From positions 13,602 through 77,601 of IMG/VR virus record IMGVR_UViG_3300031993_000048: DNA of 64,000 nucleotides; one strand, given 5' to 3'. Origin of the DNA: a virus. Taxonomy: Duplodnaviria > Caudoviricetes. Numbering within the stretch: position 1 is the stretch's first letter; every line of letters begins with the position of its first letter. Under the pieces are notes generated by a model. The model was not told where the DNA came from and did no database searches. It saw only the letters and a list, made by a program, of their open reading frames with translations. Shown here piece by piece: positions 5,391 to 54,437 of the stretch. The position numbers and the translations under genes are program-made.

Positions 5391-5515
5391 AGTGGATGTT
5401 CGCAGTCGTCGCGCTGGCCCTGCTGGCCGGCTGCGCGTCGAGGCACGAGCTGCCGAGCGGGGACCGGTTCCCGGAACCCGACCGGTGGTGGCTGGCTGGA
5501 GGAAACGGAGAATGA
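5387..5515 (+). CDS. Small lipoprotein (42 aa), possibly o-spanin-like
   Basis: MKWMFAVVALALLAGC has a lipobox (LAGC); short Pro/Trp-containing mature part; ATGA overlaps on both sides. Confidence 0.65.
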   Translation: MKWMFAVVALALLAGCASRHELPSGDRFPEPDRWWLAGGNGE

Positions 5516-6207: not shown

Positions 6208-6221
6208 TCCCGGGAGGGCGG

Positions 6222-8159
6222 ATGGCCGACAGCGGGTACAGGCGGTACTACGGGCAGGACTGGCCTCCCGTGCCCGACGGGCGCGGGAACCTCGTCCCCG
6301 TCACCAAGGCGTTCGCCGGGCTCGTGATCGGGAAGAAGTGGCGGTTCTTCAAGGCCCAGCAGGACATCGAGTTCGACGTCGAGCCGTGGGTCGCCATGCT
6401 GGACGCGGCGAAGGCGCTCATACCCGAGCGGTACTTCGTCGTCTCCGAGTGGACGGAGCAGCACTTCCACGACTGGTGCATGTGCCCGAAGGGGATCGTC
6501 ACGATCGGCTGCGCGTCGTGCGGCAAGTCGTGCGACACCGGGAACCTCATGGTCCTCGACTACATCGTCGACCCGTTCGACACCGTGATACTGCTCGGCT
6601 CCACCACGAAGGAGGCGCTCAAGTCCCGCTCGTGGAACTTCGTCCAGCAGTACCACGCCGCGCTCTGCAACAACAGGCTCGGGCTCGCCGTCCCCGGCAA
6701 GATCACGAAGGCGGGGTACGCCCTCGTGAACGTGAGCGAGGACGGGTCGCCGGAGTCCGTCGGCGACAAGGCCGGCATACAGGGCAGGGCCCTCAACGAG
6801 GACGGCAACCTCCAGGGCGCGCACGCGAAGTTCGTGCGCCTCGTCGTCGACGAGCTCGCCACGATCCGCAACCACGACGCGATCAAGACCGCGATGACGA
6901 ACCTCCGCGTCGGCGCCCTCGACTTCAAGTTCGCCGCGCTCGCCAACCCCGAGAGCTGGGACGACCCGTCGTGCCAGTACATCGTGCCGGAGGGCGGGAC
7001 GAAGGCCGTCGACGTCGACACCGGGTTCTGGGTGTCCACCCGCGGCTACTGGGTCAGGCACCACGACGGGCTCAAGTCGCCCGCGCTCAAGTCGCCGGAG
7101 GCCGCCGCGAAGTTCTCGTTCCTGATGACGCAGGACGTGATAGACGACAACCTCCGCGAGTGCGACGGCAACTGGGACGCGCCGCAGATGTGGAAGATGG
7201 TGCGCGGGTTCCCGATGCCCGTGAACGTCTCGGCCCCGACCGTCCTCGACAGGAAGGTCGGCGAGCAGAACAAGGTGACGGAGCCCGTGGAGTCCTACGG
7301 CAGGCCGCCGGTCGCGGTGGCCGCGGGCGTCGACCCCGCGTGGAGCGACGGCGGCGACGGCGCGATCTACCAGCGCGTCCTTATAAGGAACGTCGACGGG
7401 CGCCTGGTGCTCGACTTCTCCGACGGGCAGAGGAAGCTCGCGATCGGCGCGACGAAGGGCGTCCCCGTCTCGCAGCAGCTGATAACGCAGGTGAAGGAGA
7501 TCATGCAGTCGCCGGGCGACTACTGCGCGCCGCTCTCCGCGACCGCCGTGGACGCGTCCGCGAACCAGGGCCTCGCCGACGACCTCGACATGTTCATCGG
7601 CCAGGGCGCCGCGTCGTGCCTCCACGTCAACAACTCCAACAGGGCGTCGTCGAACCCGATAAGGGCGATGGGCGTCGGCAGGGCCGACAAGAAGGACAGG
7701 CAGGTCGAGCGGTGCTGCGACAGGTACGGCGACCGCGGGACGGAGGCGTGGTGCGTCCTCGCCGAGTTCTGCAAGGCCGGGCAGGTGCGCGGGCTCCCGG
7801 AGGAGGCGTTCCGCCAGCTCACGCAGCGCAGGTTCATGCTCGTCACGAAGAAGGTGAACGGCGAGACGATGTCCTCCGGCGTGAGGTTCCCGCTCCGCCT
7901 GGAGCCGAAGGACGATTTCAAGAAACGGATAAAGAAGTCCCCCGACGAGTGCGACGCGTGCGCCCTCGCGGCGCTCGCGGTGAAGGAGGCGCTCGGCCTC
8001 CTGCCGTTCGGATGGATGGCCCCCGCGGACGTTCCGCTCACGGGCCCCGCCGTGCCGCCCGCGCCGCTCGAGCTCGTCGACGTGCCCGACCCGGAGGCGT
8101 ACTGCGCCGCGCCGGACTCGGGGCCGTGCGGGGCCGGAGAGGAGGATCCCTCATGGTGA
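6222..8159 (+). CDS. terL: Terminase large subunit
   Basis: Walker A-like GCASCGKS, Walker B LVVDE, motif III-like LANP, RNase H nuclease AAGVDPAWSDGGD and C-terminal SPDECDACALA. Confidence 0.88.
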   Translation: MADSGYRRYYGQDWPPVPDGRGNLVPVTKAFAGLVIGKKWRFFKAQQDIEFDVEPWVAMLDAAKALIPERYFVVSEWTEQHFHDWCMCPKGIVTIGCASCGKSCDTGNLMVLDYIVDPFDTVILLGSTTKEALKSRSWNFVQQYHAALCNNRLGLAVPGKITKAGYALVNVSEDGSPESVGDKAGIQGRALNEDGNLQGAHAKFVRLVVDELATIRNHDAIKTAMTNLRVGALDFKFAALANPESWDDPSCQYIVPEGGTKAVDVDTGFWVSTRGYWVRHHDGLKSPALKSPEAAAKFSFLMTQDVIDDNLRECDGNWDAPQMWKMVRGFPMPVNVSAPTVLDRKVGEQNKVTEPVESYGRPPVAVAAGVDPAWSDGGDGAIYQRVLIRNVDGRLVLDFSDGQRKLAIGATKGVPVSQQLITQVKEIMQSPGDYCAPLSATAVDASANQGLADDLDMFIGQGAASCLHVNNSNRASSNPIRAMGVGRADKKDRQVERCCDRYGDRGTEAWCVLAEFCKAGQVRGLPEEAFRQLTQRRFMLVTKKVNGETMSSGVRFPLRLEPKDDFKKRIKKSPDECDACALAALAVKEALGLLPFGWMAPADVPLTGPAVPPAPLELVDVPDPEAYCAAPDSGPCGAGEEDPSW

Positions 8160-30803: not shown

Positions 30804-30832
30804 TTCCACGCCCCGGCATATTGTGGTATAAT
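30804..30832 (+). promoter_or_regulatory. sigma70-like promoter for the giant gene
   Basis: TTCCAC (30804-30809), 17 nt, perfect TATAAT (30827-30832) with TGTGG extension. Confidence 0.75.
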
Positions 30833-30876: not shown

Positions 30877-33800
30877 ATGCCGAGAAACCCGTTTGCCGAC
30901 CCGTTCACGAACCCCGCCGACGCGGGCGAATCCCTTTTTGGGCGCGATGGCGCGATGGCGCCCGCCATGCCCCGGCTCGTGCCGGCCGCCGACGAGATCG
31001 CGGACTCGTCGCTCTCGATTTCTTCCGCCCCGGATCCCCTGGCGCCTCGCCTCGACGACGATGACGACGAGCCGGACGTTCCGCAGTTCCAGTCTCCGTA
31101 CAAGGGCCAGGACCTCCTGTCCGAACCCATGGACAAGGAGAAGGGGCCGACGGCGTTCCAGCGCAAGGAGATAAACTGGTCCGACGGCGGGGAGGACCTG
31201 ACCCGCCCGCGCCGCCGCAACGTCGCCCCCTCCGACTGGCTCGAGGTCGACTACCTGTTCGGGAAGAAGGAGGGCGCGTCGGGCAAGCCCGTCGAGGCCG
31301 CCAACGTGTTCGGGCGCCAGTTCACCCGCGACGAGCTCGAGCGCGACGAGGACGGCAGGAAGCTCCTCGGGCTCATGGAGTTCCGCCGGTCCGGCAAGGT
31401 CAACGAGGGCGGGGCGCTCGCCAACTTCGGCAAGGGGTTCTCCGACTGGGGCACCTCCGACATACCTTTCTACGGCTGGTTCGCCGACATCGGCACGACT
31501 GTCGGCGACGCCATCGAGATGTCGCGGACGATCCGCAAGCTCCAGGACGGTGGCGAGGTGACGCCGCGCGAGGCGATCCGCCTGCGCACGCACATGCTCC
31601 GGCAGGAGCTCGAGAGCCAGCGCACGATGGCGCACCAGGTCGGCTCCACCGTCCGCTCGTCCGTGACGCTGGGCGCGGAGATCCTCGCGTCGTCCGCGAT
31701 AGGCGCGGGCATCGGCGCGATGTTCGGGGGCGTGGGAGCCCCGGTCGGCGCGGCGGTCGGCGCGCTGTTCGCCCCGATCCGCTGGCTCTTCGGCATCGGC
31801 GGCACCGCCGCGAAGGCCGGCGCGCGCAAGGTCGTCAACGTCGGGATGAAGCAGCTCACCGCGAAGATGGCGAGGGACCTCACGGCGGCCGAGCTCAAGA
31901 CGATCGTCCGCACGGGGGCCGCGACCTACGGCGAGGAGGGGGTCCGCTCGCTCCTCCGCGAAGGCGTGAAGAAGGGGCTGCGCGGGCGCGAGCTGTACCA
32001 TTCGCTCGCGGGCGAGCTCCAGTACGCGACGAGGATGTCCGACCCCGGCAGGATGGCCGCCCGCGCCCTGTTCAGCGCCGACTACCGGCTCGCCCTCGAG
32101 GGCGGGCTCCGCGCCGCCGTGGAGCAGAAGGCGCTCGCCAAGACCCTCGTGAACGCGACGAAGGACGACATCGCGCGGCTGTCCGTCAGGGAGCGCGCGA
32201 GGCTCGTGAACGAGGGCATCCGCAAGATGGTCGCCAACAACGAGTGGAAGCCGTTCGTGCAGGACTTCGCCAAGGGCGTGATGGTGGGCGACCGCACGGC
32301 CGCCGTCGACTTCGTGCGGAAGGGCGTCCAGGAGGCGACAGGGCGCACGCTCGTCGCCCCGCAGTACGCGCAGCGCATCCTCGACATCGCCGCGTCCAGC
32401 GTGGCGAAGGACATGGAGCTCGCCGCCGGCAAGCTCGCCTTCGCCAACCCCGTCCGGTTCTTCAGGTACTTCGGCGAGCACGCCGCGCGCGGCCTCGTCC
32501 AGTCGGAGCACGGGCTCTTCGGTGGAGCCCCGACGATCGCGCACAGCGGGTTCACCACGTTCGCCCGCGGCAAGGACGCGCTCAAGGAGGGCATCGGCCG
32601 CGTGTTCATAGAGGCCCCGATCCAGGGCGCGCTCCAGTTCGTCGGCGGGCCGCTCGCGCTCTCCCCGATATTCGCCGCCGCGTCCGGCTACAGCCCGACC
32701 GACCTCACGGTGAAGGGGCAGCTCGGCTACCAGATCGACGCCCTGATCCGCGGCGACAGGGAGAAGATGGACACGGCGCGGCAGGCCGCGCTCGGCTCCG
32801 CGTTCGTCGAGTACGCGTCGGAGGCCGCCGGCCGGGGGCTCGGCGCGATGTTCGGCGGCGCGGTGGCGACCGCCGTCGGCAAGTCGCCGTCCGCCGTGGC
32901 CGAGGGCGCGAAGGCGATGGTGACTCCGGTCTCCCGCCGGATCGGCTCCGCGCTCGACCGTGCCGTGAAGGCCGTGTACGGCGAGGGCGACCTCCTGAAG
33001 AACGGCGTCGAGGGGTTCACGGGCCAGGCGTCCCGCGCCCTCCGCGGCCTCACGGGCCGCTCCGGCGTGAAGGCGTCGGTGGCCCGCGCCGTCCAGAACC
33101 GCACGATAGACGGGTTCGACGACGCCACGAAGACCGCGCTCGCCCGGAAGGGCGTGAAGGACTGGAAGGGCTTCCAGAAGTTCGTCGCCGCGTCCGCCGC
33201 CGACGGCAACCGCATGCGCGCCGGCCTCAACTACTTCGGCCTCAAGCTGATGGAGCGCGGCATGACCCCCGACAGGGTGGTGCAGTTCTTCCGCCAGGCC
33301 GGCTATTCCGGGATCCTCGAGGAGATGGGCGAGGAGCGCGTCGGCGACTTCATGCGCGGGCTCTTCGGGTTCGACGACACCGCGTCCGACGCGACGTGGA
33401 AGGACAAGCTCCGGTCGATGTTCTCCGGCATCACGGACTTCGACCAGCTCGCGACGGAGTTCATCGCCTTCGCGATCCCCGGCGCGATCCGCCGCGGCAC
33501 CATATCGGCGCAGTCGTGGCTCGCGAACGGCGCGGTCGGGCAGGCGAGGGCGGCGGCCCAGGGCCTGCGGTACATGACGGACCTCGGGCGCGGCAAGGTG
33601 TACGCCGCGGTCGGCGGGGTCACGCAGGAGGACAAGGAGCGGATCGAGCGCCGTCCGGCGGAGTCGGCCGCGATGCGGGACGGCGTGCTGGGGACGACGA
33701 AGGACAACCGGAGCCGGATGTCGGCGAACGCCGCGGCCATGGCGGCGAACGCGGCCGGGATCGAGCAGGCGGTGCGCGACGCCGGCGGCCTGTCCGAGCA

Positions 33801-36800
33801 GGGCAGCTCGCCCGACGAGCGCGCGGCGTACGAGGCGATGCTCGCGCCCGTCCTGTCCGCGCAGGGCGAGGGGCAGATGAGGGCCGCGATGGACGAGCTC
33901 GCCGACGAGTACCTCGCCGCGGGGGACGAGGCGACGCTCGAGAGGACGATGGAGCAGACGGGGGCGACCGCGATCTTCGGCGAGGACGGCGTGGACGCGA
34001 TCCGCAGGGAGTGGCGCAAGGGCGCGGGGCACGAGTTCTCCGCCGACAGCGAGATCGAGGCGTCCCTGGCGGACTGGAAGGCGTTCGACGCGCAGTCCCC
34101 GACGGTCTCGAGGCGCGAGCCGGGATCGGTCGGCGAGGCGGTCGACGACATGTGCGCGCAGATCGCGGGCATGGACCGCAACGCGTCCGTGACGGCGGGC
34201 GAGGAGGACCGGGCGAACGGCGAGCGCGACGCGATGGTCGCCGACGAGAACGCCCGCGACGTCGCCGTCGAGGACGCGATGACGCTCGCGAGGTACCTCG
34301 GTCGCGGAGCGGTGAACTCGTCCCGCGAGATGAGCTTCGGCAGGCGCGTCATGTCGCGCATCGTCGGCATGCTCGGCGCCGCGTCCACGGGCGACCTGTC
34401 GCTCGCGGCGACCAGCCCGGCCGCGTGGCTCGCGCAGGACGAGGGCGTGGACAAGAACCTCCAGATGGCGCTCCTGCAATGCTATTCCGCCGGGCTCATG
34501 TCCGGGTGGGCGAAGATGTCGGCCGGCCAGTCCGAGGCGCTGCGCCAGGCGGTCGGGTCGGTGGAGACCGCGGAGGAGCTTCGCCAGAAGCTGGACGCCC
34601 TGCGGAGGGAGCGGAGGATCTCCGACGACATATTCGACCAGCTCGAGGAGGCCGGCGAGGAGACGTTCCGGGCCCGGGTCACGGAGTTCATGACGGCGTA
34701 CATGACGGCGAGCGGCGTGGCCCTCGTCACGCGGCAGGACGCCGTGGACATGGCGCGGTCCATCGTGGCGAAGCGCCACGAGAAGGCGGGCGAGGCGTTC
34801 GAGAGGGACGAGGCGTGGTTCGCCCGCGAGGACATAGCGCGCGAGGTGGAGGCCGCGAGGTCCGACGTGATCGACGGCGTGATCGCGACGGCCAGGAACT
34901 CCCTCGGCTACACGACGCACAGGGGCGCGGGGGACTACGGCACCTACATGACCGTCGACGTGGCGCAGGCCATGAAGAACGGCACGAGCGCCGAGGTGCT
35001 CGCCGCCATCCTCGACTCCCCGGCGTTCAGGGGCGTCGCCCGCGTGCAGAACGTCTCCGGCCTGTCGGAGCACGAGCGCGAGATGGCGATGTCGCTTTTG
35101 ACGTCCGACGTCGCCGACCTCGGCGCGATCGCCGCGATCGAGACGGAAGGCGAGGGGAACGCCGACAGGGAGCTGACGGAGCGCGAGCTCGCCGAGGTCA
35201 ACGCGGCCATGCGCGCGAACCCGAGCGACTACACGCCCGAGGCGTTCCAGAACCTCGCGAGGACGTTCGTGCGCCGCGTGAAGCTCGCCCGCGAGAACAT
35301 GCGGTCCACGTTCTCCAGGCTGGACGACGCAGGGAACAGGATCGTGGCGACTATCGCCCCGGCGGCCGGAGGGTTCGCCGTGGTGGAGACGGACGAGTCG
35401 ACCGGGGCGACGACGCGGACGGAGGTCGCCGGGAGCCGCGAGGACGTCGAGGCGCAGCTCGCCTCGCAGGGCTTCGCGCTGGAGGAGCAGAGGCTCGTCA
35501 TATCGCAGGTGAAGACCTTCGCGTCGTCCGACGCGACGAGCCTCCTCTTCCTGCGCAGCGGGCAGGACCGCGAGGCCGTCCGCGACATCTTCAAGGACTC
35601 CGCCGGCGAGATCGAGGACGAGAACGTCCTTCCGCCGTGGTGCCGCAAGGAGCGGAGGGAGCCCGGCGGCCCGCTGGTGTGGAAGTATTCCGACGACCAG
35701 TCCGACCTCGCCGCGGAGGAGTTCAGGCGCGAGCTCGCCCTCGCCGACGAGTACGAGCGCAACGGCGACTCCTGGATGTACTATCTCGCAGGCACCGGCG
35801 CGTCCGCGAAGGACCGCAGGGCGCGGATGGCGGAGGCGAAGAAGATGCACGAGCGCGTGTACGGCGTGTCCGTCGAGGGCGCCTCGCCGACGAGCGGCTA
35901 CGAGTCCCGCGCCCGCCTGGAGCTGGAGCGCCTCGGGATCCGCCGCAGCTCCTCGGTCGGCACCGACCTCCAGCAGATCGGCATGCCGTCCGACGCCTAC
36001 GTGATGCCGGTCGACGCGGTGAACGCGAAGGACGTGGTCGTGCTGACGCCCGACTACTTCGCGCTGGGCCACGGCGAGGCCCTGCTGCGGCACGGCGTCC
36101 GGCACGCGCTCAACGCGTACGTCGCCGGCGCGGGCGAGGAGGCCGAGCTCCGCAACGCGCTGCTCGTGGAGGCGTACCGCGAGTTCCGGGGCTGCATCGA
36201 CGACATCGTCGCGGAGGCGGAGACGGCGCGCGGCGGGCGGGCGGAGGCGAAGAGGCTCCGCGCCGCGTACGACGAGCTGTTCCCGGCCAGGGCGGACGGG
36301 CTCCCGTCCACGCTCGACCTCGCGAAGATCGCGTCGTCCTCCCTGTTCTTCTCCTGCGACCGCGGGAACTACGAGGACGGCAACGGGTTCCTCCATTCCG
36401 CGGAGCTGTCGAAGGCGGCGGACCGGTTCCGCTCGACCGACATCTTCATGTTCTTCATGTCCGCCGTGGACGAGGCGCTCGGAGGGAAGGGCCTGTTCGA
36501 TCCGGCGCGCTCCAGCGCGGGCGGGCTCGCCCGCTACCGCGCGGCGTTCGCCCCCGACTTCGTGAAGCTGCGCGAGGCCCGCAAGTCCGCCGTGTTCGGC
36601 GGCCAGAGCGGGGAGATGAAGAACCCGTTCGTGCGCGGCTTCAGGCTGCGCGACGGGCTCACTGCGGACGAGGTGCGGAGCGGGGCCGGGAAGTGGGTCG
36701 TCCCCGACGCGGCCATCGGCCTGAAGGAGCCGACGAGCGACAGGCTCCGCGCCCGCGACTTCGACGGCAAGATCGGCGGCTACTGGGGGCTCTACGCGTC

Positions 36801-39800
36801 GAGCGGCCAGCGCTTCGCGCAGGCGTACGGCTCGCTCACGGGCGAGCGCGACGCCGTGCTGTCGTCCGCGAGGGCCTTCGAGATGGCGAGGCGCTCCGAC
36901 CTCTGCGGCGGCGAGACCGCGGGCGGGACGGAGACGAGGGCCCGCATGAGCGACACGGTCGCGCCCCTCGCGAAGAGGGAGCTCCGCAGGCTCTCCGAGA
37001 CGCTGTCGGTCGCGGACATATCACCGGCGTCGCTCGAGAGCGCGGGGCAGGCGATGCGCTCGATAGCGACGAGCCTCATGGCGGGGGCGAAGGACAAGGC
37101 CCGCACGGAGGCCGCGCTCGTCCGCGAGTTCGAGGGCTGGCTTCTCGGGCGCGGGGTCTCCAAGGCGATCGCCGCCGAGATGGTCGCGGCGTTCGAGAGG
37201 GCCACGGTGCGCCCGATCGCGAAGAAGACCGACGAGGAGGCGAAGAACGAGGAGGCCGACGCGCAGAACGCGGAGACCGAGGAGATCGAGAACCGCGAGT
37301 CCACCAACGACCCGGACAACGAGCGGCGCGTCGGACAGTTCATAAACGACCAGAACATCATGGCCGTCTCCGGCTTCCTGAAGTTCATCATGCCCGCCGA
37401 GTGCGGGGACTCCGCGCCGACGTTCCTCCGGCTCCGCGCGGACCTCTCCCGCCCGGAGATGTACGGCGAGCTGGCGGGCGAGAGGGCGTCGTGGAAGGAG
37501 GACGTGGACGCGTTCGTAAGGATGCTCGGCGTCAACTCCGACCTGCGGAACATCGACAGGGCGCTCGCGTCCAACCTCGTGAACCTCTCGTCGCGCGAGG
37601 ACACCGACCGGATGCTCGACCGCGTCGCGACGCTCCTGTGGGAGAACGGGAGGCGCGACTACGCCCTCGCCGTCGCCGCGATCCGCAACGTCGATCCCGC
37701 CAACGGCGAGCGGAGCAAGATGCTCGAGAGGCTGTCGCAGGCGACGGCGGTCACGCCGATGCGCCTCGACCGCACCGGCCCGGCCAAGCCGTTCGGGATC
37801 GACTTCATCGGCTCGGGCGCGCGGGCGGACGTCGTGCCCGGCGTCGTGGCGTCCGGCTACACGTCGCTCTCCGAGACGGTGCTCAAGGGGATGTTCAAGG
37901 CGGACGGGTCGCTCGCGAAGGACGCGGGCGCCGCGCTCGCGAAGGTCGTCGCGTACGTCCGGTCCGACAGCTTCGCGTCGAAGCGGCTCGCCCCGATCCT
38001 CGGAACTCCGGTCAAGGTCGGCTTCGTCCACGTCACGTTCGACAAGGCGCTGTACGAGACGCTCGAGGCCGTCGCGAACGGCAAGGGCGCGACGACCCTG
38101 GCGGAATACACGGACGCCGTGCTCGCCGTCGCGGACATAATCAGGGCGCGCTCCGCGGCCGCCGCGGACGTCCTGGACGGAATCCTCGGGGCGGGCAGCC
38201 AGTACGCCCACATGCTCCGTTCCCCGTACGTCCTGTCCGAGGTCGTGCGCGTGGCGCTTTCGGCGTACAACATGAAGCGCGGTACGTCGTACGGGCGCAA
38301 CCTCCGCGAGGCCGCCGTGATGAAGCTCGTCAGGCTCGCCAACTACCTCGTGGCCGACCCGTCGCAGCGCGGCAAGGTGTCGTGGCAGACCAGCGTGCAG
38401 CGGTGCTCCGGCATCGTCGAGGACCTCGTCGTCGAACCGGTCGAGGGGCTGCTGCTCCGGCTCGGGGTCAACCCCGCGTCGACCACGCTCGAGGCCGACC
38501 TGGCGAAGGCCCTGGAGGGCAAGGACGCCGACTGGGTGCGCGACACCCTGCGCCAGATGGCGAAGGACAAGCTCGCGACGGACATGCACCTCGACTGCGG
38601 AGCCAACCCGGCGGAGGCGATAAGGAAGCGCGACAAGGCGGGGGACAAGCCCTGGACGGGCCTCAACAACGCCCCGACGTTCGTCCCCGGCGCGTACCGC
38701 TCCGCAAGCAACCTCGACGTCCTCGTGGAGGCGTACCTCGCCGGCGCGCCACGTTCCAGCGCGACGCTCGGCGGCCGCGCGGCGAGCGCCATAGAGGGCG
38801 CGAAGAACAAGTCCGTGCAGACTCTCCCCTCGATGCTCCCCGGGTTCGTGAGGTTCGCGAACAGCGTCCTGTGCCAGGCCTCCGGCGTCACCGACGAGCT
38901 TGCCGGGAACGGCAACCGCTGGCGGGACAGGTCGAATCCGATCGTGTCGTTCGTCGGCGCGAAGGACTCCGGCGGCAGGCTGCTTCGCCGCGAGTCGGTG
39001 GCGGGCGCGCTCCGCAGCGCGATCGACGCGGAGAACAGCGACCCCGAGTACGTGCCTACGCACGTCCTCGTGCCGTTCTTCCGCGCCGACAAGCCCGCGT
39101 GCTACGCCCTGCGCATACCGGTCGGCACGATGCGCGCGATGATCGAGGCGGCCGTCGGGAACGAGGAGGTCGTGCGCCAGCTTCCGGCCGATCTCGCGGC
39201 CGTCGTGGAGGAAGTCGCGAAGACGAAGGGCGAAGACCTGAAGGGCAAGGAGTACGTCGCCTACAAGAAGAAGTTCCACCAGGCGGCGTACGCCCTCGCC
39301 GCGTCCGCGCTCGGCCAGTCGCAGATCGACCCGAAGCGCGTCCCCGTCCTCTCGTCGTGCGGCCCGCTCATCTCGACCTACGTCGACAGGGGCGAGGGCA
39401 CCGACCCGAGGGCCGGCTGCTACTTCGTCTCGATGGTGGGAGGGTCGACGGGCGCGTCCATGATGGGCGGCTACATCACCGCCGGCGTTCTCCCGTCCCG
39501 CGTGTCGGGCATGGGCGAGGGATCGTGGAGCCAGGCGCAGAAGCTGCACATGTTCTCCGTGAAGCGCGGCGTCAACTTCAAGAAGGGCCAGGCGTCGGCG
39601 ATCGGCCTCGGCTTCTACGCCGACGGACGGTCGGACGACAGGTCGCGGACCAACGGCGAGATCGTCTCCAACCACGCCGTGCGGTTCGCCCAGCGGCAGG
39701 GCCGCCGGCAGCTCGAGGCGCTGCTCTCGCAGGAGTTCAAGGACGCGGGGCTCTCCGGCCAGAACCTTCTCGATCCGGTGCCGGCCCTCGAGGACGGCGC

Positions 39801-42800
39801 GACGGACGAGCAGAAGGCGGAGCACGCCGAGCTCGAGCGCATCCACGACAAGGCGGTCGACGTCGCGAACGCGTTCCTCGCGAACGCCACGATCGCGGTC
39901 GACGACCTCGAGACGAACAAGGCGGGGCTCTTCGGATCGTCGTGCGGCGTCAAGGTCGAGAAGGGCGCGACGAAGATCGAGGTCGGCGGCGTCACGGTCG
40001 CGGAGCTCGCAGACGGCAAGTGGAGGTCGTCCGTGCCGGGGTTCGAGTTCGACTTCGACGGCGAGGGCGTGAAGAACGGGCGGGCCCTCGTCATGCCGGT
40101 CCTCGCGGCGCTCGCGGCGAAGCAGGGCGGCAGGGTCGACGCGGCGGGCATCGAGGGGACGTGGGTCAGGCCCGACGGCTCCGAGTTCACCGGAAAGCTC
40201 GGCGACTCCGGGCTGCTCTCCGAGGGCGAGACGCTCGCCTGCGAGATCGACAAGGAGACCGGCGCGGCGCGCGTCGTGTTCTTCACCCGCGACATGTACG
40301 GGCAGGTCGTCGCCAGCAACGCCAACTCGTCGAAGGCGTCGGACCACCACGTGTTTCCGACGAACGCGACCCGCGACCACTGGATGATGGAGGCGATAAC
40401 GAACGCCACCACGCCGGGCGGGCGCAACGGCTCGCGCCGGTTCATCGACGCGCACGCCGGGTACTCGCTCCTCCGCCTCGCCACGCTCGCGCACAACGGC
40501 GAGCTGATGCGGCGCGAGATGCGCAGGGACCAGGAGCTCGTCGCCCTCCTGAAGGCGCACCCGAACGACAACCAGGTGCGCGACGCGATCTCCGACAGGG
40601 CCAGGGCGTTCCTCGAGAAGCAGACGCTGGTCGGGTACTACGGGAACCACGGCATCATGGTGCCGTCCGGCGGCAAGCTCGTGTCGGGCGACGAGTTCGC
40701 GCACACGGTCGAGATCGAGTGGGCCCCCGGCACGACCGACTACGACAGGGGCTGCTACAAGCCCGCGACCGTCTACACGCGGGAGGAGGCCGAGGCGTTC
40801 GGCGCGTCCCGCAGCTGGGCGTCCGGCTCCGTGAACGCGGACGTGGAGGGGTTCCGCTACGGGCTCTACTTCGACGAGGCGGCGCTCGACAGTCTGCTGT
40901 CGCAGGTCGCCCCGGACGAACAGGCTCTCGCCCGCTTCGCCCGCGCGGGAGTGGACGCCGCCGTCGCGGGGCGCATGGCGCGGCTGGCCGCGTTCATGGA
41001 GGACCTGGGAGGCCCGCTCGAGTCGCAGGAGCAGCGGACGAAGAGGGACGCGCTCCTCGCGTGCGCCTACGACTACACGGGCAAGAAGGCGAGCGAGAAT
41101 GTCCGCGCGAAGGACATCCGGTTCGACGACCTGTTCGTCAGGTCGTGGGACGGCACGACGTCGTTCGACTATGCGGCTGTCGACCACGAGGGCCGTGTCT
41201 CGCTGCACGACGGCGCGAAGCACCTGTACCTCGGCGGCTCCGTGTTCCACGCCCACCGCTCGCCCTCCGGCAACATCGCGGCGGCGTGCGGCACGGTGCG
41301 CGCGACATGCCCGTACTCGTTCTTCCCGGACGGCAGGATCGGGCGCGAGTCCAAGTACGCGCTCGATCCCGTCACCACGGCGACGCAGGGCTCCGACATG
41401 GACGGCGACTCCGCGTCCCTCCAGTTCTACGACTACGGCGCGGAGGACCTCGTCGACGCGCCGGCGATGCGCCGGTTCACCGACGCCGTCCTCGGCGGGG
41501 CGGACCCGTTCGACGTCGCGAAGGAGATGAAGTGGACGGTCGTCCAGGACGGCATGGAGGTCGTGGACCCCCGCGTTCTCCGCGCCGTCTCGCGTCTCGT
41601 GTTCTCCGCCCAGGCGAACAACTACCGCGAGGCCGCCACGTTCCACCAGGGCTACACGAGCGTGACCGCGCTGGCCGGTCGCAAGGCGACCGGAGCCGAC
41701 TTCGCCGTGCACTACCGCGAGAACCCGCCGGCCGACGGCGTGTTCGCGGACTACGGGTTCGCCGGGCGGCACCCCGTCGGGACGGACGCCGTGTTCTCCG
41801 AACCGTTCGGGGCGGAGACGCTCGCCCGGTTCGAGACGCTCGCGGGCCGCAAGGTCCTCGGCCGCCTGTCCGCCGAGTTCAAGGCGAAGTGGTTCGTCGA
41901 GGGCAAGAAGATGAACAAGGTCCTCGAGGCCATCGTGGACGAGATCCGGGGCAAGCCGAAGAACAGCCTCCTCAAGATGGGCGAGGCGGCCGACGCGTCC
42001 GACGCCGCGTCCGACTCCGCGAAGGCGCGCGGAATCTCCGTCGCGTCGCAGTCGACCATCCTCCGTGCCATCGTGACCGACCTGTTCGGGACCGGCGACA
42101 GGATGACGTACGACGAGGCGAAGGGGTATTCCGCCGTCATCGACCTCATAGCCCACATCGACGGCGTCTCGAACAACCTCTTCGACACGCTGAAGAAGAT
42201 GTTCGCCACCCGCGCCGGATGGACGACCTCGATGCTGCCGTTTTTCCTCGGCCGCCTCGCCGTAGACGCGCGCGAGGAGGCGGGCAGGGGCGGGCCGGTA
42301 GACTCGGCGTTCGTCCTCGCGGAGGCGGCGAAGTTCCTCGAGGAGCTGACCCGCGTCGACGGGAAGATCCATACGTCCGCCACGGTGGCGGGGCGGCTCG
42401 CGTCGCTTCTCGATCCGGTCAGGCGCGACGTCGCGGCCGCCCGGCTCGCCGAGCTGTACAACGGGGAGCAGAAGGACAAGGGCGCGACCGTCATGACGCA
42501 GTACCGCGGCAGGCCCAAGACCGCCGACGAGATCATAAACGACTTCTGCCGCAAGCGCCTCGAGGGCGAGGCGTACTCGATGACGCGCGACGCCAAGGCG
42601 GTGTACGCCGCCGCGTACATGACGGACGCCGCGCATCCGGTCGACGAGTCCGACTACGCCGTCTACGACCTCGTGGCGTCCTCGATGGACGACAGCAAGG
42701 CGCTGTGCCGCGCCGTCGACTACATGAAGGTCGCGGGCAAGGGGCTCGCGGACGTCGGGCGCTACGCGCTCAAGGCCGAGGGGGAGGAGACGGACGAGAC

Positions 42801-45800
42801 GATCGCCCGCGACCCCGCGCTGCGCCTCCAGGACCTGGTGGTGAAGGGCTTCTCCTCGCAGGTGGCGAACTGGCTCGACTCCACGGAAAACCTCCAGCTG
42901 GTCCTCGACGGGCAGCTCGGACGCAGGCCGTGGGACTTCGCGGCGGGGTCCGCCCTGCGCGACAACGCCGACCGGTTCGTCCATCTGATCGGAGCCGTGC
43001 GCGGCGTCGACCCCGCTCTCGTGCGCGCCATCGCGACGAAGACGACGACCGAGCAGGTCCCGCAGGGCGGGAAGGTCGCGGACCGGACGGTCGAGACGGC
43101 CTCCACGGAGACGCTCCTCCGCCGCATAGCGACCACGGTGGCCGTGTACGGGGACCTCGCCGCGACCGGAAGGGCGAAGGTCCCGGCGATCGCCCGGCTC
43201 CTCTCCTCGATACGCGTCGGGGACAACGGCGTCTCCCTTTCGCTCTCGTCGCGGGAAACCTCCGCCGACATCGAGACGCTCCGCGCCGGGTTCGACCTCC
43301 TCGCCGGCCAGGGCGGGGCGAAGGGCTACAGGATATACGAGCGCAACGAGGCGGGCGAGGCCGCGGACACGGGCCTGCGCGTGAGCGGCGCGGAGCTCGC
43401 GAAGCTCCTCGTCCTCCACGCGTCGCTCACGGGCACGTTCGGCGCGGCGCAGGACTACGTGACGCAGTCCAACCTCCCCGCCGTGTTCGGCGACGCGAGG
43501 CTCCGCTTCCTCGAGCGGTGCCGCCACGAGATCCTGGACACGGCCGAGATCGCGAGCGCCCTCGGGCTCGCGCCGGTCGACGTCGCGCGCACGAGCGCCT
43601 ACGACCTCTTCGGCGACGTCGAGGTCATCCGCACCATCGGGAGGGAGCAGGCGAGGGACGTGGAGCTGCCGTACCTGCGCGAGGAGCTCGCCGCCGCGAA
43701 GAAGGCCGACGACGCGTCGCGGACGCGCACGGTGCTGCGCCGGGGCAAGGCCGTCAAGAAGGGGCTCGAGGACGGCGAGGAGGCGTTCCAGAGCTTCCGC
43801 ACCTATCCCGCCCTGTCCGTCCTCCGCGGCGCCGCCGGGCTCACCCGCTACGGCGCGGAGGTCAACAACGCGCTCGAGGCCCGCCTCGGGCCGCACGACC
43901 TGTACCGCCGCTGGATGTCGGACGACCCGTTCGCGGAGCTGACGCAGGACGTCCCCGGGCCGGAGACGGTCGCGTCCGCCGAGATCGGCTTCCCGGTCGA
44001 GGAGAAGTCCCCGCGCGTCGACGCTTCGGCGGTGGACACGTCGTGGGCCGATCCGCTCGAGACCCGCACGGCGTTCCGCCGCCCGGGCGAGACGGAGGAC
44101 GCGTACGTGTTCCCGCGCCCCGCGCTGTCGGAGGACGGGAGCCGCGTCGTGTTCTCCACGGACGACATGGTCGACTCCCTCGAGAAGGCGTACAACGGGC
44201 TCCTCGACGCGCTCATCGACGACTCGAAGTCCAACGAGGCCCGCGCCGAGCGCAAGCGCCTGTACAACGAGCTGAACCCGACGAAGAAGATCCTGACGCG
44301 CAGGCCCGACCTCGTGGCGTCGGACCTCGCGGACATCCTCTCGGAGGCCGCGAGGCGCGACGCCGACGTGTACGACGCGCTCGACAAGATCGGCGACAGG
44401 CTCGCGGTCCACCCCGACCCGAGGATCGCGGCGGCCATCGACATCGCGAACTCCCGCCTCGGGGCGGAGGGGCGGAACGGGATCGCGCGTCCGTCGGCCC
44501 CTGCGACGAGGGCGAGCTTCATGGGAGGCGCGACGCGCGCCCGGGTCGAGGCCGACCCCCGCTCCGCGTTCGCGGACAGGGCGGAGCGCGTGGCGCCCGG
44601 CTTCACGTCGCAGCAGATGATGTCCGCGAAGACCGCTGTCGTCGGCGCGTTCGAGAAGGCGTTCGACGGCGCGGAGGTCACGGAGGTGCAGGGCAAGGAC
44701 GGCGCGGAGACGAACCTCCTCAAGGTGACGCGCCGGATCGCGAACGGCAGGCAGATCGTCACGTACGTGGCGATCGGCTCCAGAATGGGCGACACGCTCG
44801 GCATGGAGGCCGCCGCGGACTCGATCGCCGCGCTCCTCAACGCCCGGAACGGCGGGTCGCTCACGGGCGAGGCCGTCATACGCGCGTTCGGCGCGGCGAA
44901 CGTCGCCAGGCTCGCCGACATCATGCGGCGCACCGGCGCGCAGACCGGAGAGTCCGACACGACGAGCCTCGACTTCGCGCCGTTCATGTCGGGCGTGATC
45001 CGCCTTTCCGACAGGGCGGACTTCACGACGCTCTTCCACGAGTACTACCACCAGATGGTCGCCGTCTACAGGAAGCTCGGCATCCTCGACCCCGACACCG
45101 AGCGGAGGCTCAACGAGGACTTCGGCGGCGAGGAAGGCGCGGCGGAGATGTTCGGCCGCTACCTCTCCGGCGTCGAGGCGGGCGCGGACGACGTGGAGCT
45201 CCGGGACTTCATGGGCGCGGACGGGCTCACCGACGCGCACCTCCGGCTGTTCGCGGACTTCCGCCGCAGGGCCGCCGACATCGCGCGCGGCATGTTCCGC
45301 GGCATGGACGCCGACGGCGCCGCGCACTTCGTCGCGCTCCGCATCGTGCAAGGCGAGGTGACGGAAGAGGAGGCCCTGCGCATCGCCGAGCCGTCCGCGG
45401 CCGACGTGGAGAACCTCGAGCGCCAGCTCCAGGGGCTCGAGTCCCGCCCGCGCCTCGACGTCCTCACGGACGAGCAGATGGCGGACGCGATGTCGATCAG
45501 GGAGGCCGCGCTCGCCGCGCTGGCGTCCGGCGACGCCGGCGCGATCCGCGCGGCGGGGCTGCGCACGCTGGCGTTCTTCCAGAAGAAGACGCCGTCGGCT
45601 CCCGTGTCCAGGACGACGGACTCCGAAGCCCGGGACGAGGAGCGCGGGGAGCGCGCGGAGGACGTCGACATCTCCCGCGTCTCCGGGTTCATCAGGAGGG
45701 CGCTCCTCCGGTACGAGAGGGACGGCATGGGCGAGGACTTCGCCGAGTCGATGCGCCTGTATCGCGAGTTCCCCGTGGTCGGGGACGCGGCGAGCGGCCC

Positions 45801-48800
45801 GAACGCCGCCCTGTTCTACACCGTGCGCAGCTTCATCGCGCACGTCGCGGAGGCGGAGAACATCTCGATATACAGGGAAGACGGGTCGCTCACGCCCGCC
45901 GGCGAGAAGCTCATGTCGAGCGAGACCGTCGGCGAGCTCGCCATGCGCTTCGTCAACAACGCCACGCAGGAGCGCCGGTCGCAGGACCGCCGGCAGGGCG
46001 TGGAGTGGGCCTCGTCCGCGTGGGCGTTCAGCCGCGCGCTCGAGAGCGTCGCGCCCGGGACGTACGAGCGGTACTGCGCCCTGCTCGCCCGCAAGAGCGC
46101 GGAGGCGTTCCGCCGCCTCGGCGAGTCCCTGCTCGCCCGTCCCGGGAAGACGCAAGACGACATAGACGCCGCCAACGAGTTCATCGCGAAGTCCGGGGAG
46201 ATCGAGAACTTCGTCCGCCACGTGGCGAGGGGCGAGGACGTCCGCTCGCTGCTGCCGTTCGACGTCGAGTCCGGCGGAAACCTGCACGGCCTGTTCCTCG
46301 CGTACTTCACCGGAGGCGCGAGGTTCCAGCGGGACGAGGAGGGCGAATACCTCTACCCGAAGGGCCCGGTGCGCCCGTACTCGCGGGAGCTCGACCACAC
46401 GTCCCGCCTCGAGACCGGGGACCCGGCGCTCGATCCGCTCGTCGACCTCGCCTACAACTACGCGGCGCAGGCGTTCTCCGTCGCGGAGGCCGCGCGCAGC
46501 TACCGCAGGCAGGTGCTCGGCGAGGGCAAGGACGGGGAGGCCGCGGACGAGGAGCGCCCGGAGGGCGTCGGCGAGACCGCCGGCCCGGCGTCCATCTCGT
46601 CCGAGGAGGTCTCCGAGTCGACGAAGGGCCTCGAGGAGGCGCTGCCCCCGGACGCGCCGCTCGACGTCAACGCGTCCCCCGCGGCGACGGCGCCGTCCGA
46701 CTTCTTCGCGAAGGTCGACACGACGCTCACGACGCCGGAGTGGATCCTGGCGAACCCGGGCAAGTGGCTCGAGTCCGACATGCAGCGGAACCTGTCCGGC
46801 GCGTCCATGCGCGACATGATGACCGACCACGCCGTGAAGGCGGCGACGGAGCGGCACTACCGGCTCGCGATGGACTGGGTGCAGTTCTTCGGCATGGACA
46901 CGCACGTCGGCGACGGGGTGCGCAAGGTCGAGATCGTGGAGTCGAGGCTGGGCAGGAACGCCCAGGGCGACTTCTCGGTCTCGGAGGGGAACGCCCATTC
47001 CGTGATGCGCTTCTCGCAGACGCGGGGCGCGCTGTTCGGCGCGTTCGCGTGGCAGGAGAAGAGGGTCGGGGAGGCGCTCACGACCGACGACATCCGCGAG
47101 CTGCACGCGGTCGGGCGCCTCGTGAAGCTCATCGCGAACCGCCAGTCCGCGGACCTGCTCGGGATCGAGATCGGGCACCTCGCCGTGCCGGGCGCGGTCG
47201 AGATGCTGCGCAGGGACGACTACGCCGACTTCCTCTCGAGGGGGCGGCTCCTCGAGCGCGTCGCCGACTCGGGCTACCGCCTGAACGCCCTCGAGGACCT
47301 GCTGCGCCGGATCGTGGACGACGTCCCGAAGTCCGTCCTCGACGCCGGGTTCTACGACGCGGTCGTCGGGGCGCTCCGCAAGGCCGCGCTCCGGTCGGGC
47401 CCCGGAGGCGCGGAGCTTCCGCCGGAGGCCGTGAACGAGAACATGCTGCGCGCGCTCGAGAGGGCGGGCGTCGTCCACCGGTCGAAGGGCACCGGGCGCG
47501 CGGTCGTCTGCGTCTCGGCGAAGCGCATGCTCGACGCGTGGAACGCGTCGGACGCGAAGCGCAAGCTCCGGGACGCCGGGCGGCCGGAGAAGATGCTGAA
47601 CCCGTACTACTGGGCCGACAGGTTCGCGAGGGCCGCGAAGGACCTGAACAACGTCGCGGCGAAGTCCACGTACCTCACGCTCGGCGAGGGGTCGCGGTTC
47701 ACGCTCGCCGGCACGAGCCGCTTCTGGTGGCACGGCGGGACGGGCTCCCACAAGTTCCAGGTCGACGCGTACCAGAACGCGATCAGGGCGTTCGAGGGGA
47801 TGTCCCCGTCGAGCGTGGACGTCCTCCGGGCGAAGCAGTCGGAGCTCTTCGAGATCATCGAGGCGAGCCGCGACCCGTCGGTGCTGCGCCGCCAGGCGTT
47901 CTCGAAGAAGGGTGTCTCCCGCCTCTCCGACCGCGAGCTCCGCTACCTCGCCTACCTCATGGGGCTCACGACCCGCGGCGACGAGACGCGGTTCGACGCC
48001 GCGGGGTTCGCGCGCGACATCGCGGCGGGCCGGTACGAGACGTTCGACCGCGACCTCAAGGTGCCCTGCACCATCCGGCGCGACGCGACCGTGCTCGACA
48101 TCCGCCTCCAGATCGCGGAGCTCGTGTCGAGGAAGACGTTCTCCGAGAACCTCTCCGCGCTGACCGCCGAGGAGCGCCAGGACTACCTCAACGCGCAGAC
48201 CGCCGCCGACGAGCTCCGCGAGACGCTCTCGCGCGACGTGCCGGGGCGCGTGACCGCCCGCAGCGAGATGGAGGAGTTCGACCGCACCGGGCGTCTCGGC
48301 GACTCGCGCACCGCCGCGGAGTCGCTCATCGAGATGTGCAAGGAGCTGACGACCGCCGAGCGGTTCCGCGGATGCCTCGCGCAGATGCTCGCGGCGGTCT
48401 CCGCCGACGGCACGCCGTCGTTCGTCGTCGCCCCGACGGAGGCCGCGGTCGGCGTGGACCGCATGCCGGACGAGTACTGGGGCGCGCTCGCGCGCCACGT
48501 CGCGAGGTTCCTCGGGCGCAAGATCCCGACGATCGGCTACGACGAGGGGCTCTCCGGCGCGGAGAACATGCGCCGCATCCACAGGCAGCTCTCCGAGGGC
48601 GACCAGAAGCTGTACGGGAAGATGAGCGCGTCGAAGTACGGCGGGGGCCGGCTCTTCCAGGGCGACATCCTCTGCCGCCTGGACGACCGGGACGCCGCCG
48701 GGAACGTGGACGAGGCGACGAGGGCGCTCGGCGGAGAGGCCGCGTGCTACATGAAGCAGCTCCTGTCGGCGCTCCGCGCGCCGACGCAGAGCGCGGCGTG

Positions 48801-51800
48801 GCGCGTCCTCGACACCATGGCGAGCTGGTCGAAGATCTCGTCCGTCGGCTTCTCCGCGTTCTTCCAGATCGCGACCGCCTTCGAGTCCCCGACCGCCGCC
48901 GTCGGGTTCCTCCGCGCCCTCGCGGGCCAGGCCGAGTGGATCGGCAAGGCCGTCAGGAAGGCGACCGGCTCCGACGAGGTGTTCACCCGCGACCTCGTCC
49001 GGCTCCTCAACTCCAACGACCCGTTCGTGACGGAGGCGAGGGAGCTGTGCGACCTCGTCGGCATGCCGCTCGACCCGGCGCTCGACTTCACGAACGACCC
49101 GAACGACTCGAACCCCGTCCTCGGCCACGCGCAGGGCGTGAAGAGGCAGGTCGAGCAGGTCTCCGCGTTCGCGGAGCGCGCGCTCGGCAGGCGCGGCGGC
49201 AAGGCCGTCCGCAAGGCCCTCGAGTTCGGCTACCGCCACCCGACGGACTACACGTTCAACGTCGTCCTCAACGGCGTCAAGATGGCGGTCGTCATGCAGA
49301 CGGTCCGCCGCCTGCGCGAGGAGTGCCTGAAGGGCGGGCGCCCGTTCGACCTCGTGAAGGAGATGCGCAAGTACGGCGGCTACGTCAACGCCGAGATCGG
49401 CGGCATCGACCCCGCGCGCTACGCGTGGGCGACGCCCGGCATGCGCAAGCTCCTGTCGCTCGGCATGTTCTCGTGGCAGTGGACGGTCGGCGCGTGGAGC
49501 GCGGGCGGGGGCGAGGCGATCTCCGACCTCATATTCGGCGGGCACTCGTCCACGAAGGCGCTCCGCCGCCACGCGCTCCTGCGCTGGATCAGGATGTTCG
49601 GCATCGTGAAGTTCGGCGTGCCCGCCGTCCTCCAGGCCGGGATCAAGGTCCTCTCGATGCTGGGCCTCAAGGCGCTTCCGCCGGACCCCGACGACCCCGA
49701 GGACGGCCTCGAGCAGGAGGTCGACGAGATGCCGTGGTGGACGTTCAACAACGAGTCGAAGGCCGGCATGCTCGCGTTCGACGTGACCCCGCTCCTGAAG
49801 CTCGCGGCCCGCGTGCCGGGCATGAAGGAGATGAAGCGCGCGGACGTCCCGTACCTCTCGTGGGCGATCCCGGCGTACGTCGGCGGCGGGCGCAACACCA
49901 CCGGCAAGCGGCACTACTACATGCACTTCGGCAAGCAGTCGGACGAGTTCTGGCGCTGGTTCGAGAACCCGCTCGGGCAGTTCGTGTCGAAGCTCTCGAT
50001 CCCGCTCCAGAAGGGGCTCGAGGGATTCTTCGGAAGGCTCTCCCCGAACGGCTTCTCCAAGGGCTTCGCCGACAAGACGATGGTCGACCGGTGGTTCACG
50101 CTGTCGCTCGATCCCGACCAGTCGGCGCTCGCGAACTTCGTCCTCTCGCACTTCATGTCGTTCTCCGTGGAGGGCATGAAGGCGAACGCGGACGCCGGGT
50201 TCCTCGCCGCCGTGGGTCCGATGCGCATGGGGCAGTCGAAGCGCTCGACGATGCTCCGCATCGAGGACCGGCTCCAGCGCTTCGTCGAGGACGACCGCAC
50301 GGGCAACCCGTGGAGCAGCAGGAAGAACCGCCGCAAGTTCAACCTCATGTGCACGGACATCCTGCGCGAGGCGCAGCTGAACGGCGTGGACGTGACGACC
50401 ATCGTCTCCTCCGCCCTCGGCAACGTCGCGCACAGGGAGTACCAGAAGTTCTTCGAGGCGTTCCCGCCGAGCCTCGACGGGAAGCCGGACATCGAGAAGA
50501 TGCAGGACGCGCTGCGCGGCCTCACCCGCGTCGACCGCAAGGCGAAGGACATAAGGACGTGGGCCGTCGAGAAGTTCAAGGCCGCCGGCACGGACGTGAA
50601 GAGGAACAAGGCGTACTGGGCCGCGATGCGCGAGATGATCCGCGCCACGCAGGCGTCGCCCGTCGCGTTCGACTCGGCGGCGGCGGAGAGGCAGTTCGAC
50701 GCGTACCTCCTCCAGGCCGAGAAGGCGAAGAGGGCGACGCGGCTCGACGCGAACGGCGGCGAGGCGCTCTCCAACTTCCTCGCCACCGACGACGTGCCGG
50801 AGACGCTCTACGGCGTGGAGATCGTGACCGACGACCTCACCGAGGAGGACCGCGAGTTCTTCGAGGCGCACCCCGAGGCGGGCGGGTTCTACGACACGGA
50901 CGACGAGGGCGGAGGGGGCGAGCCCCCGACCGACGAGCCGCCTCCGACCGGCGCGTACAAGGGAGGCGACTCCCTTCTCGAGAAGGCGAGACGCCGGATC
51001 GGCGAGACGGGCGAGGTGCTCGACTTCGTCGGGGCCGGGGTCGAGCGCGCGCTCGCGAGGATCGCGGACAAGAACATCCCGGTCGTGAGCACGCTCGCCG
51101 ACGCCGTGGCGCAGCCCGCCGTGGTCGGCGCCCGGGCAGCCGTCGCGAACCTGACGAGCGGAGGCGGCAAGTACTACCGGCCGGAGACGCGTGACGAGAA
51201 GCACTTCTCGAAGGCCGCCCTGCGCGAGCTCGGCGAGTCCGTCAAGGGCATGCACGGGCGCGCGGCGGGCCGCGCCGACGGCATGGACAACGCCGCGCAG
51301 TTCAACCTCACGCAGACCGTCGGAGGATTCACCGTGAAGGACGGGGCCGTCACCGACAAGTTCGACATCAACCAGCGCTACCCCGGTGTGCCCGACGCGA
51401 TGACCTCCGTCGCCCGCGCCGTGCTGGGTCGCGAGGAGGATCCCGACGCCGGCAAGATAAGGACGTCGATCCCGCTGACCACGCTCGACCTCCACCTCGA
51501 CGCGAAGGGCGGCGAGACCGCGGACGACGAGTACGTCCGCCGGATCAACGCCGCCGTCGAGGACGCGATCCCGTTCGTGAAGGAACACGAGGGCTTCCGC
51601 GACAAGGCGTACCGGGACTCCGTCGGCAAGTGGACGATAGGCTACGGGCAGACGGAGATCGACGGACGCCCCGTCCGCGAGGACGACACGATAGACGAGG
51701 CCGCGGCCGCCGCGTTCGTCGCGGAGCGCATGAGGGAGAACGCCGTCGCGCTCCACAGGCAGAACCCGTGGACGCGGAACCTCTCGCAGGGCGCGCTCTC

Positions 51801-52586: not shown

Positions 52587-52966
52587 TGGCAAGGATAGTC
52601 ATAAACCCGACGACGTTCAAGAACTCCAAGGATGCGCTGTGCGTCGCGTTCAACGAGCGCTTCCGCATAGCGATGGAGGAGTACGGGTGGGAGCCGCAGT
52701 CGGAGCCGACCGACGCGCAGCGGAAGTTCTTCTCGGACACCGCCTACGCGGACGACGAGGTCCAGCTGCGGCGCACCATCATAGCGAGAATACTGACGCT
52801 CGACACGAGCGTGAAGGACCCGACGGACGACCAGCTTCGCGAAGCCCTCGGGTTCCTGGACATGTTCGCGGAGCGCGAGCGGCCGTCGAACGACTGGGAG
52901 GCGAGCGCCATAGGGCGCCTGCGCGCCCTCGTCGAGGCGGCCGCGCCGAAGGAGGCGGAGGAATGA
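52586..52966 (+). CDS. Hypothetical helical protein (126 aa)
   Basis: TGATG overlap start; typical codon bias. Confidence 0.72.
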   Translation: MARIVINPTTFKNSKDALCVAFNERFRIAMEEYGWEPQSEPTDAQRKFFSDTAYADDEVQLRRTIIARILTLDTSVKDPTDDQLREALGFLDMFAERERPSNDWEASAIGRLRALVEAAAPKEAEE

Positions 52967-54429: not shown

Positions 54430-54437
54430 AAGGAGAC

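Follow-up and report, generated by a model that had tools for sequence, protein, structure and literature searches.

The 64,000-nucleotide stretch analysed here (hereafter the window; positions 13,602 to 77,601 of the IMG/VR virus record IMGVR_UViG_3300031993_000048, Caudoviricetes) contains a giant open reading frame (ORF) of 7,044 amino acids, and we propose that the middle of its product, residues ~2826-3840, is probably a single-chain two-barrel RNA polymerase (RNAP) embedded in a late polyprotein that is packaged, ejected and used to transcribe the early genes. In the linear 77.6-kb record, whose completeness is 81% according to CheckV, the window forms the right-hand 64 kb. The giant ORF lies at 30877..52011 (window coordinates on the plus strand, as for all features below unless genome positions are given); residues are numbered from the ATG at 30877, and an in-frame TTG at 30832 is an optional start. 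GC content is 66-72% all along the window and 69% in the genome, and since GC reaches 0.97 at third codon positions of the giant ORF versus 0.48 at second positions, this frame is truly coding and not a shadow frame of high-GC DNA. The packaging, injection and early transcription that we infer for the giant protein rest on gene position, on accessory domains and on analogy with gp66, the virion polymerase of Cellulophaga phage phi14:2.

The polymerase module was modelled with AlphaFold2 as residues 2841-3840 (39397..42396), template-free and from a 16-row alignment, giving a pLDDT (predicted local distance difference test) of 78.7 and a pTM (predicted template modelling score) of 0.81. In the Foldseek search of the PDB with this model, the phi14:2 virion polymerase (6vr4) ranked first (E 6e-3, probability 0.92), and the remaining rows listed were all RNAP largest subunits, QDE-1 or the Thermus-phage polymerases P74 gp62 and P32 gp64. 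VIA-align, run against 48,161 representative chains, also placed 6vr4 at the top with Z 12.2 and 485 residues aligned, model residues 1-984 lying on gp66 residues 909-1654, while the next rows stood at Z 8.1; P23-45 gp96, P74 gp62, QDE-1, RDR2 and cellular or giant-virus subunits were found at Z 6-7.6. On the gp66 side, the matched residues take in the two barrels and the connector as well as the DFDID loop, the bridge helix (1529-1559) and the trigger loop (1598-1636). Among the predicted viral structures of BFVD, a nameless viral protein came first in Foldseek (E 2.5e-4), and pieces of crAss-like giant proteins, phi14:2 included, followed from E 7.6e-4. In addition, 24 of 30 matches in an ESM Atlas feature search were viral clusters carrying the PF05183 RNA-dependent RNA polymerase family (score 0.95), a result that we take as a lead only.

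We looked at the two double-psi beta-barrels (DPBBs) separately. The catalytic barrel with its insertions, DPBB-A (residues ~3253-3520, 40633..41436), is the place where both isolated DPBBs and RNAP largest subunits superpose in the model. In VIA-align, isolated DPBB domains matched it overall over 83-84 residues (model 413-680) with a root-mean-square deviation (rmsd) of 2.6-2.8 and Z ~8; the domain 7dbo_B, for example, aligned 83 of its 86 residues with model 416-679 (rmsd 2.6, Z 8.1). The R-x-P and DxDGD motifs described below both fall inside this modelled range. Because the whole-module VIA-align list covered the first barrel poorly, residues 2801-3165 were folded alone (pLDDT 80.4), yielding DPBB-B, a lysine-bearing barrel with a long helical insertion (residues ~2826-3152, 39352..40332). 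Its best VIA-align matches were gp66 900-1104 (Z 6.2), QDE-1 676-787 (Z 5.3), maize ZmRDR2 (Z 5.2) and P74 gp62 (Z 5.1), after which the list held generic double-psi barrels and the beta-type subunits of phiKZ, vaccinia, African swine fever virus (ASFV) and plastid polymerases; the composition of this list is consistent despite its modest Z values. The sequence-only reading of this DNA had claimed a two-barrel polymerase fold, and the template-free models support it: both DPBBs form, with gp66 as the best match.

The motifs on which that reading was built, GSDMDGD, AHRSP, NFKKGQ and ETNKAG, were located exactly where it had put them. In the lysine-bearing barrel, NFKKGQ (residues 2900-2905, nt 39574-39591; the FKKGQ part being 2901-2905, 39577..39591) keeps xKGQ in all giant homologues, and DDLETNKAG (residues 3009-3017, 39901..39927; the ETNKAG part being 3012-3017, nt 39910-39927) belongs to a D-x-E-T-x-K-[AVS]-G pattern conserved among homologues, K2903 and K3015 being invariant or nearly so. 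In the catalytic barrel, HRSPSGN (residues 3460-3466, 41254..41274) provides the R-x-P element, AHRSP (3459-3463) being placed 46 residues upstream of GSDMDGD, and QGSDMDGDS (residues 3504-3512, 41386..41412; the GSDMDGD part being 3505-3511, nt 41389-41409) carries the predicted Mg-binding triad D3507, D3509 and D3511. The order of the barrels would then be a beta-like one with the invariant lysines of FKKGQ and ETNKAG, a connector, and a beta-prime-like one in which HRSPSGN would serve as R-x-P element and QGSDxDGDS would supply the three Mg-binding aspartates; in the structural alignment, the predicted helices after barrel A fall on the part of gp66 that holds the bridge helix and the trigger loop. 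A conserved helical block of low pLDDT, SNNLFDTLKKMFATRAGW (residues 3765-3782, 42169..42222), lies after DPBB-A in the span aligned to the gp66 stretch that ends at 1654, and from this position we infer that it may be the bridge helix or the trigger loop.

The composition of the protein predicts 0.25 chance occurrences of DxDGD in 7,044 amino acids, and one was observed, so that the motif alone is not significant and the case rests on its conservation. QGSDxDGDS is identical in 19 of 19 giant homologues sharing 38-82% identity, and the pair HRSPSGN...QGSDxDGDS is retained in 29 of the 30 alignable homologues, down to ~22-30% identity, which answers the question whether the aspartates of the motif are kept among relatives. 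In the 31-row alignment, which reaches this ~22-30% identity over the modelled segment and in which row P0033 is unaligned in the motif blocks, R[SRT]PSGN is retained in nearly all homologues, the D, D, G and D of the catalytic loop are invariant or nearly so, as are R3461 and P3463, and Y-x-L-x-P...QG[SA]DxDGD[ST], xKGQ, D-x-E-T-x-K-x-G and SNxLFDxxKxxFAxRAGW also persist. Residues 3451-3500 hold 22 invariant columns and are the densest block of the protein apart from its C-terminal region.

The giant-protein family has few members, all of similar length. A word-indexed search gave 19 giant homologues of 6,338-7,638 amino acids (38-82% identity in the polymerase region), and in an exhaustive comparison with HMMER only ~21 of 1.84 billion cluster representatives matched; overall there are ~30 homologues of 5,675-7,638 amino acids. 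Across viral, genome and metagenome contig collections, related loci amounted to two distinct ones only. One relative, G001 (28% identity in the polymerase module), is a complete genome of 100 kb, and from this completeness it follows that about one fifth of the genome is devoted to the giant gene in these phages. Short matches considered as stand-alone polymerases were rejected, being fragments on contigs of 2.6-9.2 kb. One such fragment, P0032 (3,024 amino acids, on a 9.2-kb contig), has QAASAGGNTANL in place of the QGSDxDGDS of all others and has lost the Asp triad. A homologue of 63% identity is found on CAVEVC010000159.1, a 25.6-kb contig of the metagenome bin 'Clostridiales bacterium CCNA10'; the contig is nearly all giant gene and therefore tells little about the host.

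The closest relative by structure, gp66 (PDB 6VR4, GenBank locus tag Phi14:2_gp077), is a virion RNAP that transcribes early genes, and the match with it covers both barrels, the connector and the later helices. The likeness can also be followed by eye at the catalytic site, where YRIPNQG, ~38 residues and TGSDFDIDK in gp66 correspond to HRSPSGN, 37 residues and QGSDMDGDS here. On the phi14:2 coding strand, a 1,797-amino acid protein is followed by the 2,180-amino acid polymerase (DFDID at 1361) and by a 1,421-amino acid protein (HEIMH at 245). Each of the three is a virion protein. The downstream one carries a zincin domain, for which activation of the polymerase or digestion of peptidoglycan has been suggested, and some crAss-like phages have all three joined in one huge polyprotein (bioRxiv 10.1101/2020.03.07.982082). 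The giant protein also has a zincin-type motif after its polymerase module, HEYYH (residues 4721-4725, 45037..45051), within a conserved TLFHEYxHQM...EExAAD and outside any Pfam match; its HExxH lies 1,214 amino acids downstream of DMDGD, compared with a DxDxD-HExxH spacing of 1,064 amino acids in phi14:2. When hhalign was used for comparison with gp076 and gp078, the phi14:2 neighbours, the two HExxH motifs fell on each other at a non-significant E of 0.09. The crAss-like succession of large protein, RNAP and zincin protein that closes the late operon has its parallel here, and because order and spacing are so alike we read the giant protein as a putative single-ORF counterpart of the crAss-like three-gene virion block. 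The differences are equally clear. Here the module sits in one ORF of 7,044 amino acids with a lysozyme tail, in a 69% GC genome, with no detectable sequence similarity to gp66; moreover, the fourth position of the DxDxD motif is Ile or Val in all crAss-like phages, whereas it is Gly in every homologue of our family that keeps the motif.

The structural kinship with polymerases appears to be invisible to sequence searches. Pfam and PHROGs matched the whole giant protein at its lysozyme domain only and gave no match on the polymerase module. PF05183 was matched neither by hmmscan at E up to 0.1 nor in six frames at E up to 10. The RNA_pol_Rpb1_2 family PF00623 gave no six-frame match at E up to 10, here or in relative G001, while its control matched 14 of 14 genomes; the T7/N4-type family PF00940 also gave no six-frame match, but its control matched nowhere. 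No polymerase match for the module was obtained by phmmer against PDB sequences, nor when the distant homologues P0032-P0035 were compared with PDB and Pfam, and tblastn of the module against 50,697 phage records, which covers similarity to YonO-type phage RNAPs, had no match. In hhalign, used here to compare slices of the family alignment with single sequences, the family profile reached a probability of <1% against phi14:2 gp66. The late proteins of phi14:2 show no significant similarity to any late protein of this phage. A tblastn hint between giant residues 2585-2761 and phi14:2 gp078 (E 0.16) was dropped, as the profile comparison did not uphold it.

These results bear on the best surviving alternative, that the phage is a very divergent crAss-like member with an already described fused polyprotein and adds nothing new beyond another sequence. 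Its nearest structural neighbours are indeed crAss-like, the RNAP-zincin order is the same, the operon runs from the terminase gene to the block, and fused crAss polyproteins have been reported. Against this, neither gp66 orthologues nor crAss signature genes such as those for terminase, portal and capsid, by which membership of Crassvirales could be recognised, were matched by hhalign, PHROGs or tblastn; the terminase and RNAP regions are without tblastn match in the 50,697 phage records, 18 of the 20 neighbouring late ORFs have no PHROG match, Gly stands where Ile or Val is expected, the GC content is 69%, and the family has only ~21 cluster representatives among 1.8 billion. We thus regard this explanation as unlikely, while granting it more weight than the others below. 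The sequence-only reading had called the genome unlike crAss-like phages. This holds for its high GC, but it understates the kinship, considering that the module is structurally nearest to gp66, that the order of RNAP and zincin motif is shared, and that fused crAss blocks as well as DxDGD polymerases of high-GC actinophages are known.

Our proposal of a packaged and ejected polymerase takes into account the setting of the giant gene and the other parts of its product. The gene for the terminase large subunit (6210..8156; phrog_2, E 7.7e-8) stands first in a late operon on the same strand as the giant gene; the giant gene follows downstream in it, together with a run of large ORFs of structural size. 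At the C-terminus of the giant protein, a phage lysozyme domain was found at residues 6902-7035 (51580..51981; PF00959 E 3e-24, 86.1 bits against a cut-off of 22.3; phrog_7 E 2e-30), which also has a weak PHROG match to 'internal virion lysozyme'. Near the N-terminus, a Kyte-Doolittle scan revealed a Gly/Ala-rich hydrophobic segment (residues 269-308, 31681..31800), with a weak DUF6861 match below the cut-off, that is possibly a membrane hairpin. In the mechanism that we propose, the giant protein would be made late and packed into the capsid, then ejected together with the DNA, its crossing of the envelope being aided by the lysozyme and hydrophobic parts; it would possibly be cleaved by its own zincin, and would finally transcribe the early genes independently of the host polymerase, perhaps from T-rich-CCT motifs in a low-GC control region.

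We also looked at sequences from which such transcription could start. In the left arm of the genome (genome 1-13601), the divergent early control region contains the AT-rich 17-mer ACTTTTTTCCTGATTCG, with three exact copies and one carrying three mismatches, at genome positions 7879-7895(-), 8235-8251(-), 9263-9279(+) and 9838-9854(+); the 17-mer is absent from the whole 64-kb window. In relative G001, TTTATTTTATCCTT occurs four times on one strand, at 56708, 56841, 58045 and 59182, beside the only low-GC stretch of that genome. Common to ACTTTTTTCCTGATTCG and TTTATTTTATCCTT is the pattern T-rich-CCT-N1-2-RRTT-(G)CG, which could be a candidate phage-specific promoter of the polymerase.

A true two-barrel polymerase might also have another role, such as RNA priming of replication, RNA-templated synthesis as in QDE-1 or late-gene transcription, acting late or inside the cell. 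Fold and motifs are silent on template, timing and location, and relatives of QDE-1 are reported to use RNA templates (PMC9508822). What speaks against this role is the late-operon location of an ORF that also holds a lysozyme and hydrophobic segments, as well as a closest structure that is itself a virion enzyme; moreover, without packaging an enzyme made late could have no early action. Considering these points together, we judge another role improbable.

Several observations weigh against a packaged early polymerase, or at least against parts of this proposal. As far as sequence methods go, the module is linked to polymerases by none of them. The Foldseek E-values of the module are modest, the Z values of 5-6 obtained with DPBB-B are in the range that VIA-align calls common, and Foldseek with DPBB-B alone returned only noise, namely MexA-type adaptors at a probability <=0.05. 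The model segment that matches the bridge-helix and trigger-loop part of gp66 has a pLDDT <50 in places. Moreover, the promoter idea is based on two genomes, and the lysozyme tail is optional, being missing from about one third of the homologues.

The last alternative, non-polymerase barrels of expansin, RlpA/MltA or barwin-like type that bind or cut peptidoglycan and contain DxDGD as a coincidental acidic loop, could draw on the expansin, kiwellin, barwin and cerato-platanin entries of the VIA-align lists (Z 5.5-7), on the chance expectation of the motif and on the presence of another wall-degrading domain in the protein, but it is very improbable given that the beta then beta-prime order and the connector align over 485 residues of gp66, far above single-domain rows, that the invariant pair of R-x-P and GSDxDGD matches barrel A of RNAPs, and that the Foldseek PDB rows are polymerases only.

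Comparison with other polymerases places the module more precisely. QDE-1 and plant RDR2, the RNA interference (RNAi) polymerases of PF05183, share with it the single chain, both barrels and a DxDGD with Gly, with VIA-align Z values of 7.2 and 6.4 on the whole module and of 5.3 and 5.2 on barrel B, respectively. They differ in that the module is found in a viral DNA genome, is embedded in a giant multi-domain protein and leaves the PF05183 model unmatched. Phage N4 has a virion RNA polymerase of ~3,500 amino acids that is likewise giant, packaged and injected and transcribes early genes; it would share the lifestyle proposed here, with the difference that its fold is the T7-like right hand. 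In phage P23-45, gp96 is a virion two-barrel RNAP fused to a tape measure protein of 5,002 amino acids (PDB 8H2M/8H2N; PMC10770324). It resembles our case as a two-barrel RNAP within a giant protein (VIA-align Z 7.2-7.6), and for gp96 both presence in the virion and cell entry with the DNA are known; its RNAP is N-terminal in the tape measure protein and is devoid of a clamp, whereas here the module is mid-protein and matches gp66 much better. The family of ~7,000 residues exceeds in length this 5,002-amino acid tape measure protein and the other giant phage proteins compared. Finally, single-chain DxDGD polymerases related to PF05183, of the YonO and FP_oengus type, occur in high-GC actinophages (bioRxiv 10.1101/842583); unlike the module they are stand-alone and detectable by HHpred against PF05183, and they show no tblastn similarity to it.

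Several elements of this picture are already known: crAss-like virion two-barrel polymerases, some of them fused, the P23-45 polymerase joined to a tape measure protein (PMC10770324) and the DxDGD polymerases of high-GC actinophages. What is new is a family that has no sequence link to the known ones, a catalytic loop with the canonical Gly, and a phage lineage without a place in current databases; our literature searches returned no description of this giant-protein polymerase family. A broader interpretation is that these phages form a previously unrecognised and deeply separate lineage of ~90-150-kb high-GC gut and rumen phages whose largest gene, taking >20% of the genome, encodes a whole ejected transcription block of the kind seen in crAss-like phages, in one chain and with a canonical QDE-1-like GxDxDGD, and that the block predates Crassvirales or moved between distant lineages. 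We consider this nearly as likely to be right as wrong, though we stop short of calling it probable. If true, the phage ancestor that has been proposed for eukaryotic RNAi polymerases would be modelled more closely by this family than by gp66.

To our knowledge, injected two-barrel RNAPs are known experimentally from two phage systems only, the crAss-like phi14:2 and the Thermus phage P23-45, and a third family would widen the known range of this infection strategy. A rare way to start infection thus seems to be present in a lineage that has no detectable sequence kinship to crAss-like phages. In addition, the homologues provide a new and well-conserved alignment for relating such polymerases to eukaryotic RNAi polymerases, and the case illustrates that motif reading combined with structure prediction can annotate the middles of proteins left blank by Pfam and PHROGs.

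Outside the polymerase module, the hydrophobic segments, the zincin-type motif and the lysozyme domain are the only recognisable parts of the giant protein. Its most conserved region is found at residues 5800-6690 (48274..50946), where as many as 25 columns in a stretch of 50 residues are invariant. It includes a hydrophobic helix at residues 6241-6264 (nt 49597-49668) and may be a membrane or translocation part. No family was found for it, and the Atlas search gave only a sub-threshold lead, LPD38 (0.86). After ~residue 6690 (window 50947-52011) the tail of the protein is modular, as it is of lysozyme type in a subset of homologues, belongs to three other unrelated tail types in others and is missing in ~10. 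Some homologues have precomputed Pfam matches to NADAR (PF08719), PF08010 or PF08902. NADAR was considered as an alternative C-terminal tail and dropped, because homologue P0010 has a NADAR match yet no tail.

The rest of the late region is largely foreign to the databases. The 18 late ORFs without PHROG match are among the 20 that neighbour the giant gene (window 1-30244 and 52639-58243), and the terminase large subunit gave no tblastn match among the phage records. Judged by these searches, the phage as a whole appears unplaced and is otherwise unrecognisable by current databases. Directly upstream of the terminase gene, window 5392-6204 encodes a papain-family cysteine peptidase (PF00112 E 2e-9; phrog_16701). 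Moreover, three stretches of divergent InlB B-repeat domains (PF18998) and one YadA-head repeat (PF05658) were recognised in large late proteins at window 12468-15656 and 52639-54426; these are likely surface or fibre adhesin parts.

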